Position numbers and translations under genes: made by a program. The notes beneath the pieces are model-generated. The model was not told the DNA's origin and searched no databases. It was given only the letters and a program-made list of their open reading frames with translations. From assembly GCF_036507355.1 (NCBI RefSeq), contig NZ_AP027877.1: a DNA stretch of 64,000 nt. One strand, 5' to 3'. The stretch is from Escherichia coli. GTDB taxonomy: Bacteria > Pseudomonadota > Gammaproteobacteria > Enterobacterales > Enterobacteriaceae. Shown here in pieces: positions 1 through 45,117 of the stretch. How positions within the stretch are numbered: position 1 is the stretch's first letter; each line of letters begins with the position of its first letter.

Positions 1-561
1 TACCAGCGTGATATCAGCCGCAAGGGCTATCAGGGGGTTAAAGTTGCGGGCGCTAAGTTGATAGGTCAGGTTGCCAAGTGTGTTGCAACGATGAGCGCGA
101 ATTAGCGCCAGGTCGGCGCGCAGCGGGCGTTCGAGCAGCCAGGTTTTACCGTCGAGTGTTAGTGTCTGTTTGCCTTCCTCTACGACGGTGCCGACACCCG
201 TTGGGGTGAGAAAACCTCCAAGTCCAGCTCCACCACAGCGAATTTGCTCGATTAGAGTACCTTGCGGCACCAGAACGACGTCCATCTCACCAGATATCAT
301 GCGCCGACCTGTTTCCGGGTTGGTGCCGATATGTGAAGCAATCACTTTGCGGACTCGACCATTGACGATGAGCGGACCGATGCCGGTATCAACAAACGCG
401 GTATCATTGGCTATCAATGTCAGGTCGCGAACACCAGATTCCAGTAATGCTTCAACCAGGCGGGATGGAGTGCCAATCCCCATAAATCCGCCCACCATGA
501 TGGTCATGCCGTCACGAAAGAAGCCGGTGGCGTCTTGTAATGTCATCAATTTTGTTTTCAT
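1..561 (-). CDS. atoD: acetate CoA-transferase alpha subunit AtoD, 3' end cut by window edge (first 187 codons present)
   Basis: Minus-strand ATG at 559-561 translates MKTKLMT...; lies just downstream of a sigma54 -24/-12 element; the plus-strand ORF 170..628 in the track is its antisense shadow. Confidence 0.8.
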
Positions 562-606
562 TTTTTATCCCTCTTGCATACACCGTTGTGGGTACAGTCA
601 GGGAAT

Positions 607-623
607 AGCAAGGGGAGTGCCAG
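607..623 (-). promoter_or_regulatory. sigma54 (RpoN) promoter of atoDAEB; minus strand reads CTGGCAC-N5-TTGCT
   Basis: Canonical TGGCAC-N5-TTGC spacing read directly; positioned between atoC stop (757) and atoD start (561). Confidence 0.8.
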
Positions 624-704
624 AATGAGATTATTGGGTGTTTTTATTTAAATAATTGAATGGAAAAGGATAAATTAGAAGGGGATTCATAAGGAGAATA
701 AGCG

Positions 705-745
705 GCTATGCAGAAAATTGCGCACTGTGCAAATTTCTGCATAGC
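705..745. promoter_or_regulatory. AtoC upstream activating site: 41-bp palindrome GCTATGCAGAAAATTGCGCAC/TGTGCAAATTTCTGCATAGC
   Basis: Two ~20-bp arms in inverted orientation about 90 bp upstream of the sigma54 element, the usual enhancer position for a bacterial enhancer-binding protein. Confidence 0.75.
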
Positions 746-756
746 AAGTTTTGGCG

Positions 757-2142
757 TTATACATCCGCCGGATCGATACCGTATTCCTGGAGTTTATACA
801 TCAATGCACGGCGACTGATGCCCAGCATTAAAGCAGTGCGGGTTCGGTTTCCTTCTTGTTGTTCCAGCACTTCCATAATGATGCGTTTTTCGACGCGTTT
901 AATTTCCTCTTTTAAATTACGCTCTCCGACAGGGGCTGTTTTTACCTCGCCAGCATTACAGACTGGCTGACGAATCTGCGGCGGAAGATCCTCAGAAAAA
1001 ATGATCGGGCCTGAATTCATCACGACGGCGCGTTCAATAACGTTGGAAAGCTCTCGAATATTTCCCGGCCATGACCAGGCGGTAAGCAGTGACATTGCCA
1101 TCGGATCGATGTCGATAATATCGCGCTGATTCTCACTACTGAATTTTTGCAAAAAGTGATTAGCTAACAGGGAAATATCTTCCCGGCGATCGCGCAGAGG
1201 CGGCAGTATTAAATGAATAACGTTAAGGCGATAAAAGAGATCTTCACGGAAGGTGCCTTCTTTTACCATTGCCTGCAAGTCGCGGTTGGTGGCAGCAATG
1301 ATGCGGATATCAACTTTTATGGTCTGATGGCCGCCAATCCGTTCAAATTCCCGTTCCTGCAGAATGCGTAGTAATTTGGCTTGCAGTACGAGCGGCATTT
1401 CGCCAATTTCGTCGAGGAGCAGAGTACCTTCGTTGGCACGTTCAAATAATCCCTGACGCAAGGTTTGTGCACCAGTAAATGCACCTTTTTCATGACCAAA
1501 CAGTTCACTTTCGAGCAACGATTCCGGCAGCGCCGCGCAGTTGACTTTAATGAACGGCCCCTTTGCCCGCCGCGAATTGTAGTGAATCGCTCTGGCAATC
1601 AACTCTTTCCCGGTGCCGCTTTCACCGCTAATCAAGACGCTGGCCTGAGAAAGGGCAATTTTGGCGGTGTCTTTGCAGATATCCATCATCGCCGGGCTGT
1701 TGGTGAGAATGTGCCCCCATTGCCAGCTGGTGCTCAGTGCCTGGTGCAGATGACGGATCTCTTTTTTCATTGACTGGAGTTGTAAAGCGCGCTGAACGAT
1801 TAAATTCAACTCATCGAGATCAAACGGTTTAATAACATAGTCGAAGGCCCCGCAGCGTAGCGCTTCGACGGCGGTTTCCACTTCAGCATAGGCCGTCATC
1901 AGAATAACGGGTGTCCGGGTCTCATGGCTGCGCATCTCCTTTAGTGCCTTGATGCCGTCCATCTCTGGCATGCGGATATCCATCAACACCACGTCAGGGT
2001 GAATATCAGCAAACAGGTGTAATGCTGTGCGTCCGTTGTTCGCACAATGTGTTTCGAATCCTTGTAGTGCAAAAGCGGTGCTCAGCATACGGCGAACATT
2101 ATCTTCATCATCCACAATAAGGATGCGATTAATAGCAGTCAT
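757..2142 (-). CDS. atoC: sigma54-dependent response regulator AtoC (461 aa)
   Basis: ORF track; N-terminal receiver domain, central AAA+ sigma54-activator motif GESGTGKE, C-terminal HTH; start overlaps atoS stop (ATGA). Confidence 0.93.
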   Translation of the reverse strand: MTAINRILIVDDEDNVRRMLSTAFALQGFETHCANNGRTALHLFADIHPDVVLMDIRMPEMDGIKALKEMRSHETRTPVILMTAYAEVETAVEALRCGAFDYVIKPFDLDELNLIVQRALQLQSMKKEIRHLHQALSTSWQWGHILTNSPAMMDICKDTAKIALSQASVLISGESGTGKELIARAIHYNSRRAKGPFIKVNCAALPESLLESELFGHEKGAFTGAQTLRQGLFERANEGTLLLDEIGEMPLVLQAKLLRILQEREFERIGGHQTIKVDIRIIAATNRDLQAMVKEGTFREDLFYRLNVIHLILPPLRDRREDISLLANHFLQKFSSENQRDIIDIDPMAMSLLTAWSWPGNIRELSNVIERAVVMNSGPIIFSEDLPPQIRQPVCNAGEVKTAPVGERNLKEEIKRVEKRIIMEVLEQQEGNRTRTALMLGISRRALMYKLQEYGIDPADV

Positions 2143-3965
2143 ACAGTCTGATTTCCCTGCGGGTTGATCGGTAAAATAAGCGTGAAGGTTGCGCCGTAGC
2201 CCGGCAAACTGGCGACGCGAATATCACCCTGATGGGCATTAATGATGCGTTGACTTAACGCCAGACCAAGCCCGGTTCCTGAGGCTTTGGTGGTGAAAAA
2301 GGGATCGAAGATCTTTTTTTGCAGCGAGAGATCAATGCCACAGCCGTTGTCCTCTATCGAAATGGCCTGTTGTGAGTCGCTGTACTGCCAGGTTCGAATG
2401 CGAATTTTCCCTCGTGCGCTGATAGCCTGGACGGCATTGATCAGGATATTCAGTAGTACCTGTTTGAGCAGTTCACGATCGGCGTTAATCGGGCTTAATT
2501 CATTATCCAGTTCGCTTATGAAGTCGATCCGCGCTTGTACGCCGGCGGTTTGTACCAGTACCAGAGTTTCTTCAACCAATGCATTGAGGCTGACTTGTTG
2601 CCATTGACTGTGGCGTGGACGTGAAAATTCGAGCAATTGCTGAATAACTTTGTTAATTGAATCGATTTCTTTGAGTACTACGGACAGATATTCCTGATGT
2701 ATTAGGTCGCTGGTTTGTTGGCGCAAGATCTGTACATAACCACGAATAGCCGTTAGCGGATTACGTACTTCATGCGCGACGCCAGCCATCAGCTCACCCA
2801 GTGTGGCGAGGCGTTCTGCTTGCGCCATGCGGCGCTGGGTTTCTTTGCGGGCAGTTAAATCAGAGAAAATCACCAAAGCACCTATCATTTCACCGTGCGT
2901 GTTATGAATACGACTGGTAGTGACACTGAGTTCAATGGTGCGGTCACGGCCTGGAAAACTGATCTCCAGCGCCACATGTTCGGTGCCATGTTCCAGCGTA
3001 TCCAGTACTGGACTGTAGAACTGAGTATTGTCGAACAACATGGAGTAAGGCTGCCCTACCAGTTCATGACGTTGATAGCCAGTGATAACTTCTGCTGCCG
3101 GGTTCATGGTGGTTACATCACCCTGGCGGTCAATGGCAATGACGCCATCGGCAGCGTTTTCAATAATCAGATCGTTAAGTGTCCGCGTTTCACGCAGTGC
3201 CTAGGCGAGGTTGTTAACACTCTGACTGATTTGCCCCATTTCACCGGGCAATTGTGGTAATCGAGTGGGAATATTTTGTGCCAGAGTCGAGAGGCCATCG
3301 GTGATGATATCAATATTGGCGCTCAGGCGACGGGAGAAAAGGACAATCAACAGCAGGCTTATCAGCAAACCGGCGGAGAGCACAATGATAATCCTCACAT
3401 CCATTTTCCAGGCCTGGCGGCGAATATCTTCGGTTAATTCATTGGCCCAGATATAGCCGAGGATTTCACCATTACGCTCAATGGGGATCATTGAATTCAA
3501 AATATCGCCGCGCACCTGCCTGCCTGAATACACCAAAGGGGTATTTGCACGCATGACTTCGCGACCAGGGTGATCTGCGGCAATGGTAACGCCGACATTA
3601 TTCTGATATAGCGCTGAAGGCGCGTAGGTGATTATCGCATCCAGCGTTTTGTTGTAATAACCAGCGCCGATGCCAGGGAAGGCGTGAGTGATATTCTCGG
3701 TAATGGGGGCAAGTTCTGCATTTAATGCGCGGATACGCTCCTCACGCGGTAAGTCGATGTAGAGATCGTAGCGATCGCCTAGCGCCTGATTAAGCAGGTT
3801 GACCACGGCAGAAAGTTTTTTCTCTTTTTCAGATAAGACTGCTGAACGTCCTTCTGTTTCTACGATATAACCAATAGTAAGCGTTGGGACAATGACCATC
3901 AGGATTGCCATCAGAATCATTTGATTGCGTAAGCGGCGTGGATAAATCCACTTCATATAATGCAT
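2139..3965 (-). pseudogene. atoS: sensor histidine kinase AtoS interrupted by one in-frame TAG at codon 255 (plus coordinates 3201-3203)
   Basis: Track ORFs 3201..3977 and 2139..3107 are in the same frame and together span exactly 609 codons; translation across the junction reads ...VNNLA*ALRETRTL...; ATG for MHYMKW at 3963-3965. Confidence 0.85.
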
Positions 3966-4131
3966 GCTGAAATCCACTAGTCTTGTCCGGTATATGACGA
4001 TTATCAGAGGTTAAGGTGATGATTTCTCGGCGGTGTATCATATTCCAGAGAAGAGAGAACATTGCGGTAACACGCTTTTACCGCTACCTTAACCACACTC
4101 CATCGGTCACCTGAGGCGGAGCTTCGCCCCT

Positions 4132-6981
4132 TTGAAATACCTTGCTTCTTTTCGTACAACCCTGAAAGCCTCGCGCTACATGTTCAGAGCATTGGCGTTA
4201 GTGCTCTGGCTGTTGATTGCTTTTTCATCCGTTTTTTACATCGTTAATGCGTTACATCAGCGAGAATCGGAAATTCGTCAGGAATTTAATCTGAGTTCCG
4301 ATCAGGCTCAGCGCTTTATTCAACGCACCTCTGATGTGATGAAAGAGCTGAAGTACATCGCCGAAAATCGCTTATCGGCAGAAAACGGTGTGCTTTCCCC
4401 GCGTGGACGAGAAACGCAGGCGGATGTGCCTGCGTTTGAACCGCTGTTTGCCGACTCTGATTGTTCCGCAATGAGTAACACCTGGCGAGGTTCTCTGGAG
4501 TCATTGGCGTGGTTTATGCGCTACTGGCGCGATAATTTTTCTGCGGCTTACGATCTCAACCGGGTATTTTTAATCGGCAGCGATAACCTCTGCATGGCCA
4601 ATTTCGGTCTGCGTGATATGCCAGTGGAACGCGATACCGCGTTGAAAGCGTTGCATGAACGCATCAATAAATATCGAAATGCACCACAAGATGATAGCGG
4701 CAGTAACCTCTACTGGATCAGCGAAGGTCCGCGCCCTGGCGTCGGGTATTTTTACGCGTTGACGCCAGTTTATCTGGCGAACCGGTTGCAGGCGCTTTTG
4801 GGTGTCGAGCAGACCATCCGGATGGAGAATTTTTTCTTACCTGGTACGTTGCCGATGGGGGTTACCATTCTTGATGAAAATGGTCATACCCTGATTTCGC
4901 TTACCGGACCAGAAAGTAAAATTAAGGGCGATCCTCGCTGGATGCAGGAACGCTCCTGGTTTGGCTATACGGAAGGGTTCCGGGAGCTGGTGCTGAAGAA
5001 AAATCTGCCACCCTCATCGCTAAGCATCGTGTATTCGGTGCCGGTTGATAAGGTGCTGGAACGCATTCGCATGTTGATCCTTAACGCAATTTTGCTGAAT
5101 GTGCTTGCCGGAGCTGCATTGTTTACTCTCGCGCGGATGTACGAGCGACGTATTTTCATTCCGGCGGAAAGCGACGCCCTGCGACTGGAAGAACATGAGC
5201 AGTTCAATCGCAAGATTGTCGCCTCCGCGCCAGTGGGTATCTGCATTTTGCGTACCGCTGATGGCGTCAATATTTTAAGTAACGAACTGGCGCATACCTA
5301 TCTCAATATGCTTACGCATGAGGACCGCCAACGACTGACACAAATTATCTGTGGGCAGCAGGTCAATTTTGTTGATGTCCTGACCAGCAACAATACCAAT
5401 CTGCAAATCAGCTTCGTCCATTCGCGCTATCGTAATGAAAACGTGGCCATTTGTGTGCTGGTGGATGTTTCTTCGCGCGTGAAGATGGAAGAGTCGTTGC
5501 AGGAGATGGCACAAGCAGCGGAACAGGCGAGCCAGTCAAAATCGATGTTCCTTGCCACCGTCAGTCATGAGCTGCGAACGCCGCTGTATGGCATTATCGG
5601 TAACCTGGATCTTTTGCAAACCAAAGAGTTACCGAAAGGCGTCGATCGTCTGGTGACGGCAATGAACAACTCTTCCAGCCTGTTGTTGAAAATTATCAGC
5701 GATATTCTCGATTTCTCGAAGATTGAATCGGAACAGTTGAAGATCGAACCGCGTGAGTTTTCACCGCGTGAAGTGATGAACCACATCACCGCCAACTATT
5801 TACCGCTGGTGGTACGCAAGCAGTTAGGCTTGTACTGCTTTATTGAACCGGATGTGCCAGTGGCCTTAAATGGCGACCCGATGCGTTTACAGCAGGTCAT
5901 CTCCAACCTGTTGAGTAACGCCATAAAATTCACCGATACCGGCTGTATAGTTTTGCATGTCCGCGCTGATGGCGATTATCTCTCTATCCGTGTTCGCGAT
6001 ACCGGCGTGGGGATTCCGGCGAAAGAAGTGGTGCGCTTGTTTGATCCCTTCTTCCAGGTCGGAACGGGCGTACAGCGAAACTTCCAGGGGACCGGTCTGG
6101 GTCTGGCGATTTGTGAAAAACTGATCAGCATGATGGACGGCGATATCTCGGTAGATTCAGAACCGGGAATGGGCAGCCAGTTTACCGTGCGTATTCCGTT
6201 GTACGGCGCTCAGTACCCGCAGAAAAAAGGCGTGGAAGGGTTGAGTGGTAAACGCTGCTGGCTGGCGGTCCGCAATGCGTCGCTCTGTCAGTTCCTGGAA
6301 AACAGTTTGCAGCGCAGCGGCATCGTCGTAACAACATACGAAGGGCAGGAACCGACTCCCGAAGATGTGTTAATCACTGACGAGGTAGTGAGTAAAAAAT
6401 GGCAGGGCAGAGCGGTAGTGACCTTCTGTCGTCGACATATTGGTATTCCGCTGGAGAAAGCGCCAGGGGAGTGGGTACACAGTGTGGCTGCCCCGCATGA
6501 GCTACCGGCATTGTTGGCGCGTATTTATTTGATCGAGATGGAGAGCGACGATCCTGCTAACGCTCTGCCGTCGACGGACAAAGCGGTCAGCGATAATGAC
6601 GATATGATGATTCTGGTCGTGGATGATCATCCGATTAACCGACGTCTGCTGGCAGATCAGTTGGGATCGTTGGGCTATCAATGTAAAACCGCGAATGATG
6701 GCGTCGATGCGCTTAATGTACTTAGCAAGAATCATATTGATATCGTGCTTAGCGACGTCAACATGCCAAATATGGATGGTTACCGCTTGACGCAACGCAT
6801 TCGTCAGTTGGGACTGACGTTGCCGGTAATCGGAGTAACTGCTAATGCGTTGGCTGAAGAGAAGCAGCGGTGTCTGGAGTCCGGTATGGACAGCTGCCTC
6901 TCGAAGCCGGTAACGCTGGATGTGATAAAACAGACGCTGACGGTATATGCCGAGAGGGTCAGGAAATCGCGGGAATCGTAG
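4132..6981 (+). CDS. rcsC: hybrid sensor histidine kinase RcsC (949 aa)
   Basis: ORF track; HisKA H-box (SHELRTPL), HATPase and C-terminal receiver domain; convergent with rcsB. Confidence 0.93.
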   Translation: MKYLASFRTTLKASRYMFRALALVLWLLIAFSSVFYIVNALHQRESEIRQEFNLSSDQAQRFIQRTSDVMKELKYIAENRLSAENGVLSPRGRETQADVPAFEPLFADSDCSAMSNTWRGSLESLAWFMRYWRDNFSAAYDLNRVFLIGSDNLCMANFGLRDMPVERDTALKALHERINKYRNAPQDDSGSNLYWISEGPRPGVGYFYALTPVYLANRLQALLGVEQTIRMENFFLPGTLPMGVTILDENGHTLISLTGPESKIKGDPRWMQERSWFGYTEGFRELVLKKNLPPSSLSIVYSVPVDKVLERIRMLILNAILLNVLAGAALFTLARMYERRIFIPAESDALRLEEHEQFNRKIVASAPVGICILRTADGVNILSNELAHTYLNMLTHEDRQRLTQIICGQQVNFVDVLTSNNTNLQISFVHSRYRNENVAICVLVDVSSRVKMEESLQEMAQAAEQASQSKSMFLATVSHELRTPLYGIIGNLDLLQTKELPKGVDRLVTAMNNSSSLLLKIISDILDFSKIESEQLKIEPREFSPREVMNHITANYLPLVVRKQLGLYCFIEPDVPVALNGDPMRLQQVISNLLSNAIKFTDTGCIVLHVRADGDYLSIRVRDTGVGIPAKEVVRLFDPFFQVGTGVQRNFQGTGLGLAICEKLISMMDGDISVDSEPGMGSQFTVRIPLYGAQYPQKKGVEGLSGKRCWLAVRNASLCQFLENSLQRSGIVVTTYEGQEPTPEDVLITDEVVSKKWQGRAVVTFCRRHIGIPLEKAPGEWVHSVAAPHELPALLARIYLIEMESDDPANALPSTDKAVSDNDDMMILVVDDHPINRRLLADQLGSLGYQCKTANDGVDALNVLSKNHIDIVLSDVNMPNMDGYRLTQRIRQLGLTLPVIGVTANALAEEKQRCLESGMDSCLSKPVTLDVIKQTLTVYAERVRKSRES

Positions 6982-7174
6982 GACGGATAAGGTGTTTATG
7001 CCGCATCTGGCATTCAGTGCAAATGCCAGATGCGACGCTGACGCGTCTTATCTGGCCTACTTTAATGTAATCTGTTGAAATAATGGGAATCGTAGGACGG
7101 ATAAGGCGTTTACGCCGCATCCGGCAATCGGTGCAAATGCCAGATAAGACACAAACGCGTCTTATCTGGCCTAC
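6971..7174. repeat. REP/BIME cluster: two ~90-bp units in tandem (6971-7060 and 7085-7174), each carrying REP palindromes (GCCGGATGCGGCGTAAACGCCTTATCCGGCCTAC-like)
   Basis: Direct reading; units about 88 percent identical; first unit overlaps the last codons and TAG stop of rcsC. Confidence 0.8.
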
Positions 7175-11243: not shown

Positions 11244-12362
<1,119 letters not shown>

Positions 12363-18899: not shown

Positions 18900-19035
18900 G
18901 ATGTGCCACATCCGGCATGGTATGCCGGATGTGGCGTATGCTGATAAGACGCGCCAGCGTCGCATCAGGCAACCGGCTCGGGCGTTAGATGCGGCGTAAC
19001 CGCCTTATCCAACCTATGGGGTGCCGCACTTCACG
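18900..19035. repeat. REP element cluster between mqo and eco
   Basis: Imperfect palindromes of the GCCGGATG...CATCCGGC / CGCCTTATCC type read directly. Confidence 0.7.
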
Positions 19036-32933: not shown

Positions 32934-33503
32934 AGTAGTCTCCTGAGGTTTTATTAGAATCATTATGTTTGAGCGTAGCGTTGGTAACGCTACCAGGCGC
33001 GTGAATGTTACCCCATTTTATGTATGGACATGTAGCGAAAACTACAACCTTGTCGTTCGCTTTGGCATCATTTTCATTATAAAGACGGAATTTTGCATCA
33101 GCTTCTCATCAAGAAAAACAACTAAAAAATCAATCACAATACTTGTGCATTTCTTTAAACAGTTTTTAAAAACTGACTCCGGGTATGGAGCTATGGGTAT
33201 TTTCTGTACCCAATGCTTTTAACTGCAATTAATTTCATAGGATGAAAGCTCAATGCATCAATCTGGTTCTGTTTCTCTTTGTCGTTCCGCAATATCTGTT
33301 CTGGTAGCTACAGCGTTATATTCACCCATAGCATTGGCATCAACAGTTGAGTATGGTGAGACAGTTGATGGTGTTGTCCTGGAAAAAGATATCCAGCTGG
33401 TTTATGGGACCGCCAATAATACGAAAATCAATCCTGGCGGAGAACAGCATATTAAAGAATTTGGTATAAGTAGTAATACTGAAATTAAGGTAATGACTCC
33501 AAC

Positions 33504-34007
33504 TTATTGATAGTGTTTTATGTTCAGATAATGCCCGATGACTTTGTCATGCAGCTCCACCGATTTTGAGAACGACAGCGACTTCCGTCCCAGCCGTGCC
33601 AGGTGCTGCCTCAGATTCAGGTTATGCCGCTCAATTCGCTGCGTATATCGCTTGCTGATTACGTGCAGCTTTCCCTTCAGGCGGGATTCATACAGCGGCC
33701 AGCCATCCGTCATCCATATCACCACGTCAAAGGGTGACAGCAGGCTCATAAGACGCCCCAGCGTCGCCATCGTGCGTTCACCGAATACGTGCGCAACAAC
33801 CGTCTTCCGGAGCCTGTCATACGCGTAAAACAGCCAGCGCTGGCGCGATTTAGCCCCGACATAGCCCCACTGTTCGTCCATTTCCGCGCAGACGATGACG
33901 TCACTGCCCGGCTGTATGCGCGAGGTTACCGACTGCGGCCTGAGTTTTTTAAGTGACGTAAAATCGTGTTGAGGCCAACGCCCATAATGCGGGCTGTTGC
34001 CCGGCAT
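33504..34007 (-). CDS. insB: IS1 transposase InsB (167 aa; expressed as InsAB' by -1 frameshift)
   Basis: ORF track; recognised IS1 InsB sequence. Confidence 0.9.
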
Positions 34008-34201
34008 CCAACGCCATTCATGGCCATATCAATGATTTTCTGGTGCGTACCGGGTTGAGAAGCGGTGTAAGTGAACTGCAGTTGCCATGTTTTACGGCAG
34101 TGAGAGCAGAGATAGCGCTGATGTCCGGCGGTGCTTTTGCCGTTACGCACCACCCCGTCAGTAGCTGAACAGGAGGGACAGCTGATAGAAACAGAAGCCA
34201 C
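33926..34201 (-). CDS. insA: IS1 protein InsA (91 aa)
   Basis: ORF track; zinc-finger CPSC...CSHC and HTH; overlaps insB as in IS1. Confidence 0.9.
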
Positions 34202-36682
34202 TGGAGCACCTCAAAAACACCATCATACACTAAATCAGTAAGTTGGCAGCATCACCGAAATTAACGGCGGGTATCAGTACATTGAAATGAATGGCACCGC
34301 AGAATACTCCGTATTAAATGATGGTTATCAAATTGTTCAAATGGGTGGCGCGGCAAACCAGACTACCCTCAATAATGGTGTGCTACAGGTTTATGGCGCA
34401 GCGAATGATCCCACGATTAAAGGCGGGCGCTTAATCGTTGAAAAAGATGGGATTACCGTCCTTGCCGCTATCGAAAAGGGAGGATTACTGGAGGTTAAAG
34501 AGGGGGGATTAGCGATTGCGGTAGATCAGAAAGCAGGCGGTGCTATTAAAGCAAGCACGCGGGTCATGGAGGTATTCGGAACAAACCGTCTCGGTCAGTT
34601 CGAAATCAAGAATGGTATTGCTAACAATATGCTGTTGGAAAACGGCGGAAGTTTGCGAGTTGAAGAAAATGACTTCGCTTATAATACTACTGTAGATAGT
34701 GGCGGCTTACTGGAGGTTATGGATGGCGGGACTGCAACTGGCGTTGATAAAAAAGCAGGCGGAAAATTAATTGTCTCAACGAATGCGCTGGAAGTGAGTG
34801 GTACAAACAGTAAAGGCCAATTTAGTATAAAAGATGGTGTGTCAAAAAATTATGAACTGGATGATGGTTCCGGGCTTATTGTTATGGAGGACACGCAGGT
34901 CATTGACACTATCCTCGATGAGCATGCCACTATGCAATCGCTGGGAAAGGATACTGGTACGAGAGTGCAGGCAAATGCGGTATATGATCTCGGTCGATCA
35001 GATCAGAATGGAAGTATAACGTATTCCTCTAAAGCCATCTCTGAAAATATGGTTATCAACAATGGCCGCGCTAATGTCTGGGCTGGCACAATGGTTAACG
35101 TTTCAGTCAGAGGGAATGATGGCATTCTTGAGGTCATGAAGCCGCAAATAAATTATGCACCCGCTATGTTGGTGGGTAAGGTCGTGGTTTCTGAGGGCGC
35201 TTCTTTAAGAACGCATGGTGTCGTGGATACCAGCAAAGCGGATGTTTCGCTCGAAAATAGCGCATGGACCATCATTGCCGATATCACTACGACGAACCAA
35301 AACACCCTCCTCAACTTAGCCAACCTTGCGATGTCTGACGCAAATGTGATTATGATGGATGAGCCAGTGACTCGTTCATCAGTGACGGCAAGTGCGGAAA
35401 ATTTCATTACGTTGACCACCAATACCCTGTCGGGAAACGGCAATTTTTATATGCGTGCCGATATGGCTAATCATCAGAGCGATCAGCTCAACGTCACCGG
35501 TCAGGCAACAGGTGATTTCAAAATATTCGTGACGGACACCGGTGCCAGCCCGGCAGCAGGAGATAGCCTTACACTGGTAACAACGGGCGGCAGTGATGCT
35601 GCATTTACGTTGGGCAATGCCGGAGGCGTTGTTGATATCGGTACGTATGAATATACCTTGCTGGATAATGGCAACCATAGCTGGAGTCTGGCAGAGAATC
35701 GCGCGCAAATTACCCCTTCAACCACTGATGTGCTGAATATGGCGGCCGCACAACCGCTGGTATTTGATGCAGAACTGGACACCGTGCGTGAGCGTCTTGG
35801 TAGCGTAAAAGGCGTTAGTTACGATACGGCGATGTGGAGTTCGGCAATTAACACCCGCAACAACGTGACCACTGATGCGGGAGCTGGTTTTGAGCAAACA
35901 TTGACGGGCCTGACGCTCGGTATCGATAGCCGTTTCTCCCGTGAAGAAAGCAGTACAATTCGCGGCTTGTTCTTTGGTTACTCTCATTCTGATATTGGTT
36001 TTGATCGCGGCGGAAAAGGTAATATCGATAGCTATACCCTGGGGGCTTATGCCGGTTGGGAGCATCAGAACGGTGCCTATGTTGATGGGGTGGTGAAAGT
36101 TGACCGTTTTGCCAACACCATCCATGGCAAGATGAGTAATGGGGCAACAGCGTTTGGCGATTACAATAGTAACGGCGCGGGTGCTCATGTTGAGAGCGGG
36201 TTCCGTTGGGTTGACGGATTGTGGAGTGTTAGACCCTATCTGGCCTTTACCGGCTTTACCACAGATGGTCAGGACTACACGTTATCAAACGGCATGCGCG
36301 CGGACGTGGGAAATACCCGGATATTACGCGCTGAAGCGGGAACGGCGGTAAGCTATCACATGGACCTGCAAAACGGTACGGCGCTGGAACCCTGGCTGAA
36401 AGCCGCCGTGCGTCAGGAATACGCCGATTCTAACCAGGTGAAAGTTAATGACGATGGCAAATTTAATAATGATGTGGCTGGAACCAGTGGCGTTTATCAG
36501 GCTGGGATAAGGTCATCGTTTACCCCGACGTTAAGCGGTCATTTGTCAGTCAGCTATGGCAATGGCGCAGGGGTAGAATCGCCGTGGAATACCCAGGCGG
36601 GTGTGGTCTGGACGTTCTGATAACAGACAATAAACAGGCCGTGATGTGTCGCGGTCTGTTTATCGAATTAAATGCAGATATA

Positions 36683-44772: not shown

Positions 44773-45117
44773 GTGACTTCATTACAACTCTCAATCGTCC
44801 ATCGACTGCCGCAGAACTATCGCTGGTCTGCTGGTTTCGCAGGTTCGAAGGTTGAACCGATTCCGCAAAATGGACCGTGCGGTGACAACAGCCTGGTGGC
44901 GCTTAAATTGCTTAGCCCGGATGGTGATAATGCATGGTCGGTGATGTATAAACTAAGCCAGGCGTTAAGCGACATCGAAGTTCCATGTTCGGTGCTGGAG
45001 TGTGAAGGTGAGCCGTGCCTGTTTGTAAATCGCCAGGACGAGTTTGCTGCAACATGCCGATTGAAAAATTTTGGTGTGGCAATTGCCGAACCCTTTTCAA
45101 ACTACAATCCTTTTTAA
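44773..45117 (+). CDS. yejG: uncharacterized protein YejG (114 aa)
   Basis: ORF track; synteny between bcr and yejF. Confidence 0.85.

Follow-up and report, generated by a model that had tools for sequence, protein, structure and literature searches.

The atoDAEB control region of an Escherichia coli strain that carries a nonsense codon in atoS

The stretch of DNA analyzed here, hereafter the window, comprises 64,000 nucleotides of an E. coli chromosome (NZ_AP027877.1). Its first 48 kb are colinear with positions 2,275,000 to 2,324,007 of the K-12 genome at approximately 98% identity, and the order rcsC / atoS-atoC-atoD is the same in both. Positions 561-745 are the intergenic control region between atoC and atoD. 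The window holds only the first 561 nt of atoD, while atoA, atoE, atoB and rpoN lie outside it. Over positions 1-25000 no complete genome comes closer than 98.6% identity, a level reached by environmental and freshwater isolates, so that the source lineage is not closely represented among the 5426 complete E. coli genomes. Neither the ato promoter nor atoS had a match in about 1500 of these genomes (28%); pathway loss is thus common and unsurprising. One copy of the ato region found in these searches is plasmid-borne. The features of the locus are as follows.

1..561, minus strand: first 187 codons of atoD, the rest of which lies past the window edge, with the ATG at 561..559
562..606, minus strand: stretch that separates the -12 element from the ATG, with a transcription start predicted near 596 and a leader of about 35 nt
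590..597, minus strand: CTGTACCC, an 8-nt perfect complement to nucleotides 4-11 of Spot 42, a lead only
623..607, minus strand: sigma-54 (-24/-12) element CTGGCAC-TCCCC-TTGCT, its GG being 621-620 and its GC 609-608
624..704, minus strand: AT-rich spacer of 81 bp, proposed to form a loop, hypervariable in sequence and constrained in length
648..661, minus strand: IHF-like core ATTCAAnnAnnTAA, conserved inside the otherwise unalignable spacer
745..705, both strands: AtoC enhancer (upstream activating sequence), an imperfect 41-bp palindrome made of two inverted 20-bp half-sites around base 725
757..2142 (stop included), minus strand: atoC, sigma-54 enhancer-binding response regulator, intact, 461 aa
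2139..3965, minus strand: atoS, sensor kinase gene with a nonsense codon, overlapping the start of atoC by 4 nt (2139-2142)
3201..3203, minus strand: TAG replacing CAG (Gln255) of atoS, from the alignment to K-12

The palindrome starts 11 nt past the TAA stop codon of atoC. Its arms (705-724 and 726-745) are 20 nt long, stand 1 nt apart and pair at 18 of 20 positions (90%), which confirms the 41-bp palindrome described earlier from the sequence alone, though it is imperfect. That sequence-only reading had also placed it about 90 bp upstream of the promoter; the upstream placement holds, but the measured distance is 81 bp between its promoter-proximal edge and the C at 623, and its centre lies 104 bp upstream of the GG of the -24 element. 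The two half-sites, 745..726 on the minus strand and 705..724 on the plus strand, have exactly the sequences and the offsets from the atoD ATG that were published for the experimentally verified AtoC sites GCTATGCAGAAATTTGCACA (-184..-165) and GCTATGCAGAAAATTGCGCA (-163..-144 from the ATG; Pilalis et al. 2011, PMC3118216, Table 5). In the alignment to K-12 the whole palindrome is identical.

Given its place directly behind the atoC stop codon, the palindrome might function mainly, or also, at the RNA level, as a hairpin in the 3'-terminal part of the atoSC transcript - that is, a terminator or stabiliser, with a role beyond protein binding. Folded as RNA it reaches -23.3 kcal/mol (z = -4.0 compared to shuffles), and the changes between the E. 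coli and Citrobacter arms preserve the symmetry. A change that keeps symmetry is, however, equally expected of a dimer-binding site, and the conserved asymmetry between the arms (GCACA/GCGCA) amounts to a mismatch in the hairpin. Moreover, the stem is not followed by a T-run (CCGCTTATTCTCC), and AtoC binding to precisely these half-sites is published (PMC3118216). We therefore consider a hairpin role very unlikely. The narrower proposal of an intrinsic terminator was rejected despite the stable hairpin, as a terminator scan predicted none at the palindrome and the T-run is missing.

The promoter element, reported as TGGCAC-N5-TTGCT at 607-623 of the minus strand some 45 nt before the atoD ATG, can be read directly. 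TGGCAC occupies 622..617, the N5 stretch (TCCCC) 616..612 and TTGCT 611..607; the 16-nt TGGCACTCCCCTTGCT thus spans 622..607, and the interval 623..607 includes the preceding C. Between TTGCT and the ATG there are exactly 45 nt (606..562), and the coordinates obtained earlier from sequence alone were right to within one base. The exact match at 622..607 has the GG/GC spacing of a sigma-54 promoter and is oriented toward the gene. In the 64-kb window the exact consensus TGGCACNNNNNTTGCW has this single perfect match, compared to 0.11 expected. Allowing one mismatch gives 2 matches for 3.8 expected, a number indistinguishable from that of shuffled sequences, so that the motif is meaningful here only as an exact match in context. 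A second sigma-54-like site (44897-44912, one mismatch) lies inside yejG and was discarded as being within chance expectation. A promoter scan found no sigma-70 promoter in 450-900.

The -24/-12 element is identical to that of K-12 in the alignment. In K-12, CTGGCACTCCCCTTGCT is OS21, a site upstream of atoD that was mapped by ChIP-seq of sigma-54 (Bonocora et al. 2015, PMC4591121); EcoCyc lists OS21 as a promoter with experimental confirmation, and its predicted transcription start is 35 bp before the start of atoD (PMC4591121). The same rule predicts a start near 596 in the window. In addition, an RpoN holoenzyme gSELEX peak was found in the atoC>atoD spacer (PMC8743547). The sigma-54/AtoC architecture proposed for the atoDAEB promoter is thus borne out, all the elements named having their documented counterparts in K-12 (PMC3118216, PMC4591121, PMC8743547): compared with the published promoter, the half-sites, their offsets, the -24/-12 element and the leader are all identical.

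Downstream of the promoter, AtoD matches K-12 at 186 of 187 residues (D160N) and is open to the window edge, and the annotation of atoD in matching genomes agrees. Its leader holds a conserved block, GTACCCAmAAyGG..ATGCAAnAGGGA, which includes the Shine-Dalgarno sequence AGGGA. Only one site (603) is polymorphic between 562 and 606 among seven E. coli haplotypes, and identity between Escherichia and Citrobacter reaches 0.78 in this region, versus 0.32 to 0.40 in the spacer. atoD has been cited as a Spot 42 target (bioRxiv 10.1101/035972), and the GTACCC of the Spot 42-complementary stretch is kept in Citrobacter. The energy of the full-length duplex between Spot 42 and the atoD leader was no better than that of shuffles, 371 of 500 doing as well; pairing was therefore not retained on whole-duplex energy, and the 8-nt seed complement stays as a lead. 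A natural deletion allele of the atoDAEB promoter exists in E. coli CUVM53 (NZ_CP116976.1, 151-487). There the sequence is retained from the palindrome as far as CTGGCACTCC, where it skips to a point midway along atoD. Lost with the deleted stretch are the -12 element, the leader and the N-terminus of AtoD, and the gene is annotated as a pseudogene.

Every functional site of the control region is base-identical to K-12 in the alignment. Across the whole region the window differs from K-12 at 15 positions: 13 in the spacer, one at 755, just past the atoC stop codon, and one at 603. Such a concentration of 13 of 15 differences inside the spacer is unexpected (binomial P = 5e-6); it corresponds to 13 of 81 spacer positions (16%), compared to about 1% in the flanking atoC, atoD and atoS. 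The same contrast is seen within the species. Among seven full-length E. coli haplotypes the spacer has 19 polymorphic sites, its length and the IHF-like core being constant, and there are none in the palindrome (41 bp) or in the promoter (17 bp). On a larger scale, 3539 of 3918 genomes have a match to a 51-mer covering the palindrome that is 100% identical along its aligned part (at least 80% of the query), and 3789 of 3851 have one, by the same measure, to a 34-mer covering the promoter. The exact 281-bp promoter haplotype of the window is itself rare, with at least 99% identity in 31 of 3923 E. coli genomes, and is the most distant from K-12 among the sampled haplotypes. The closest promoter haplotype, in ECNB21-M121, is 100% identical over the 281 bp and lies beside an intact atoS. 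Relative to this nearest promoter haplotype, the 5' end of atoS looks mosaic in the window.

Within the spacer, ATTCAATTATTTA (661..649) differs from WATCAANNNNTTR by a single mismatch, a degree of likeness that is common by chance, occurring about once per 900 bp. IHF is reportedly required at the atoDAEB promoter. AtoC is said to protect positions -146 to -107 from the mapped start in footprints, which would put the start at about 598-599 of the window, within 3 nt of the predicted 596. The variability of the spacer could also be read as meaning that lineage-specific loop alleles, owing to recombination or diversifying selection, tune ato output, a further possibility being that this strain uses the promoter independently of AtoS; we regard this as a rather unlikely account.

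Conservation was also examined between species, with a scan of one genome per species using the outer 10+10 bp of the palindrome as query, so that conservation of these outer positions in Citrobacter is by construction. The scan returned an E. coli record and seven Citrobacter species, in all seven of which a sigma-54 element lies downstream. Nine sequences, from Escherichia and six Citrobacter species, were aligned; the seventh Citrobacter showed the same layout and was left unaligned. The shared order is atoC stop, palindrome, spacer of 81 to 85 bp, CTGGCAY-N5-TTGC, leader and atoD, and the conserved islands among Escherichia and the six Citrobacter species are exactly the palindrome, the IHF-like core, the -24/-12 element and the leader. 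Counts of invariant columns are as follows.

Inner palindrome, lying outside the query: 16 of 21
IHF-like core ATTCAAnnAnnTAA: 9 of 14
-24/-12 element: 11 of 16
Stretch from the -12 element to the Shine-Dalgarno sequence: 20 of 34
Remainder of the spacer: 2 of 70

Distances are maintained as well. The centre of the palindrome lies 103 to 107 bp from the GG across species - that is, about ten helical turns - the IHF-like core 39 to 41 bp from the GG, and the GC 46 to 47 nt from the ATG. That the sigma-54 motif and the palindrome could be functionless chance matches is practically inconceivable. One-mismatch versions of the sigma-54 consensus are indeed no commoner than in shuffles, but the exact match is unique in the window, and both elements coincide with experimentally verified sites, are invariant in E. 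coli next to a hypervariable spacer, and are conserved in Citrobacter. A chance origin is refuted by this conservation and by the match to the literature.

The genes of the two regulators differ in their state. AtoC is 100% identical to the K-12 protein, with 11 silent nucleotide differences in its gene. It carries D55, I129 and GAFTGA (220), and its Pfam domains (Response_reg, Sigma54_activat, AAA_lid_14 and HTH_8) are those of an intact activator. The gene atoS is colinear with that of K-12, with 26 nucleotide differences and no indels, one of the differences turning CAG into TAG at codon 255 (3203..3201). The stop reported earlier is thus real in the sequence. Since Pfam places all three of PAS, HisKA and HATPase_c beyond this codon, the open frame before the stop does not encode an intact kinase. 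Of the 3901 complete E. coli genomes with an atoS gene, none contains the exact 61-mer around the stop, and atoS is the only gene broken by a stop among the 39 K-12 coding sequences compared in the window.

These observations might be taken to mean that the stop is a sequencing or assembly error and that the AtoSC-atoDAEB circuit is wild type in this strain. The change affects a single base, occurs in no other complete E. coli genome, and stands among 38 other compared K-12 genes that are all intact. It is, however, a clean C-to-T substitution, unlike the homopolymer indels typical of assembly errors, and we find an error improbable. A pseudogene-rich, Shigella-like source was considered and rejected, as the window has no internal repeats or insertion sequence (IS) elements and 38 of the 39 K-12 genes are intact.

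The sequence-only reading was correct in stating that the regulatory DNA is intact, the palindrome, promoter and leader being identical to K-12. Its further suggestion, that intact regulatory DNA beside a broken kinase gene is worthy of note, carries little weight. The stop is a single private substitution that none of the other complete E. coli genomes shares, so that promoter decay would have had no time to set in, and intact cis-acting DNA next to such a one-base mutation needs no special explanation.

We conclude that positions 561-745 are very probably the known atoDAEB promoter, which depends on sigma-54, together with the AtoC enhancer, in a strain where AtoS is truncated and induction by acetoacetate is most likely lost. 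The mechanism has been established for K-12 and is carried over here by sequence identity; for this strain the sequence shows the identities, the conservation and the stop codon, from which we infer that AtoC binds, that the spacer loops, where transcription starts and that induction is lost. Sigma-54 RNA polymerase would wait as a closed complex on CTGGCAC-N5-TTGCT (623..607), and phosphorylated AtoC would assemble on both inverted 20-bp half-sites (745..705), centred 104 bp upstream of the GG. The AT-rich spacer, bent at the IHF-like site (661..648), would loop AtoC onto the polymerase, and the promoter would be opened through ATP hydrolysis by the AAA+ domain of AtoC, transcription beginning near 596 with a leader of about 35 nt ahead of atoD. 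With the kinase truncated, the promoter of this strain is probably sound but not inducible by acetoacetate. As atoS and atoC overlap and the stop lies about 1 kb before the start of atoC, the premature stop may in addition lower atoC expression by polarity.

It is also conceivable, if unlikely, that the promoter is still in use because AtoC is activated without full-length AtoS, through a product restarted at Met287, through cross-phosphorylation by another kinase, or through acetyl phosphate. In this case the ato operon would be expressed, perhaps without acetoacetate control. An in-frame ATG at atoS codon 287 opens an ORF of 322 aa after the stop (3107..2142, minus strand), which retains most of PAS together with HisKA and HATPase_c and, if translated, would yield a soluble kinase fragment; a cytoplasmic AtoS construct (232-608) has been used as an active partner of AtoC (PMC10963238). 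However, no obvious ribosome-binding site is present in the 20 nt before Met287 (GCCAGGGTGATGTAACCACC), and the restart fragment would begin within the PAS domain. The window also has the wild-type I129 of AtoC, the known constitutive allele being I129S (PMC5699524), and the stop ahead of the overlapping atoC start is expected to lower, not raise, atoC expression. We thus keep the loss of acetoacetate induction as the preferred reading.

Compared to its closest counterpart, the K-12 atoDAEB promoter, the region has the same gene order, the same AtoC protein and the same distances throughout to the atoD ATG, and its leader, 41-bp palindrome and 17-bp CTGGCACTCCCCTTGCT are unchanged; it differs by the 13 spacer substitutions, the changes at 755 and 603, and the Q255stop of atoS. 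The Citrobacter atoC-atoD regions (C. werkmanii, C. youngae, C. gillenii, C. sedlakii, C. amalonaticus and two more) have the same order and spacing of elements, but their spacer sequences cannot be aligned (0.32 to 0.40 identity), their -24 element is often TGGCAT, and their inner palindrome reads AATTTT, not AAATTT. Among IHF-assisted sigma-54 promoters, prpBCDE, glnHp2 and pspA are served by the NtrC-family activators PrpR, NtrC and PspF, respectively. They have in common with the atoDAEB promoter a dyad-symmetric site for the activator some 100 bp upstream, an AT-rich spacer that holds an IHF-type site (a putative one in the window), GG and GC separated with an N5 stretch, and an activator that combines a receiver, an AAA+ domain (GAFTGA) and a Fis-type HTH. 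They differ in the activator, in the signal (acetoacetate via AtoS in the ato system) and in the pathway, and in that the enhancer in the window lies directly behind the gene for the activator itself, past its stop codon.

Elsewhere in the window, Rfam families comprise MicF, three naRNA4 repeats, a tRNA and the L25 leader, none of the matches overlapping 1-5000. The naRNA4 repeats, of REP/BIME type, lie at 6981-7171 (two, between rcsC and rcsB) and at 18939-19014 (one, between mqo and eco), and the K-12 eco-mqo site has a longer naRNA4 array than the window. OmpC (11259-12359) is the most divergent protein of the window compared to K-12, with 92.7% identity and 8 gap positions, the others being 98.5 to 100% identical. 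The yejO region (33316-36620) is unlike that of K-12: the IS5 that interrupts yejO in K-12 is absent, about 770 bp (33488-34257) have no megablast match to K-12, and an open 777-aa ORF is present on the plus strand (34287-36620).

Overall, the atoDAEB control region of this strain is already known and ordinary, and its sole oddity is the strain-private stop in atoS. It is a textbook-type pair of sigma-54 enhancer and promoter, which has previously been footprinted, mutated, mapped by ChIP and used in biosensors. For the bacterium itself, the predicted consequence is that acetoacetate would not induce atoDAEB, and that the strain would not grow on acetoacetate, or on butyrate (with fadR mutations), unless atoS were supplied.
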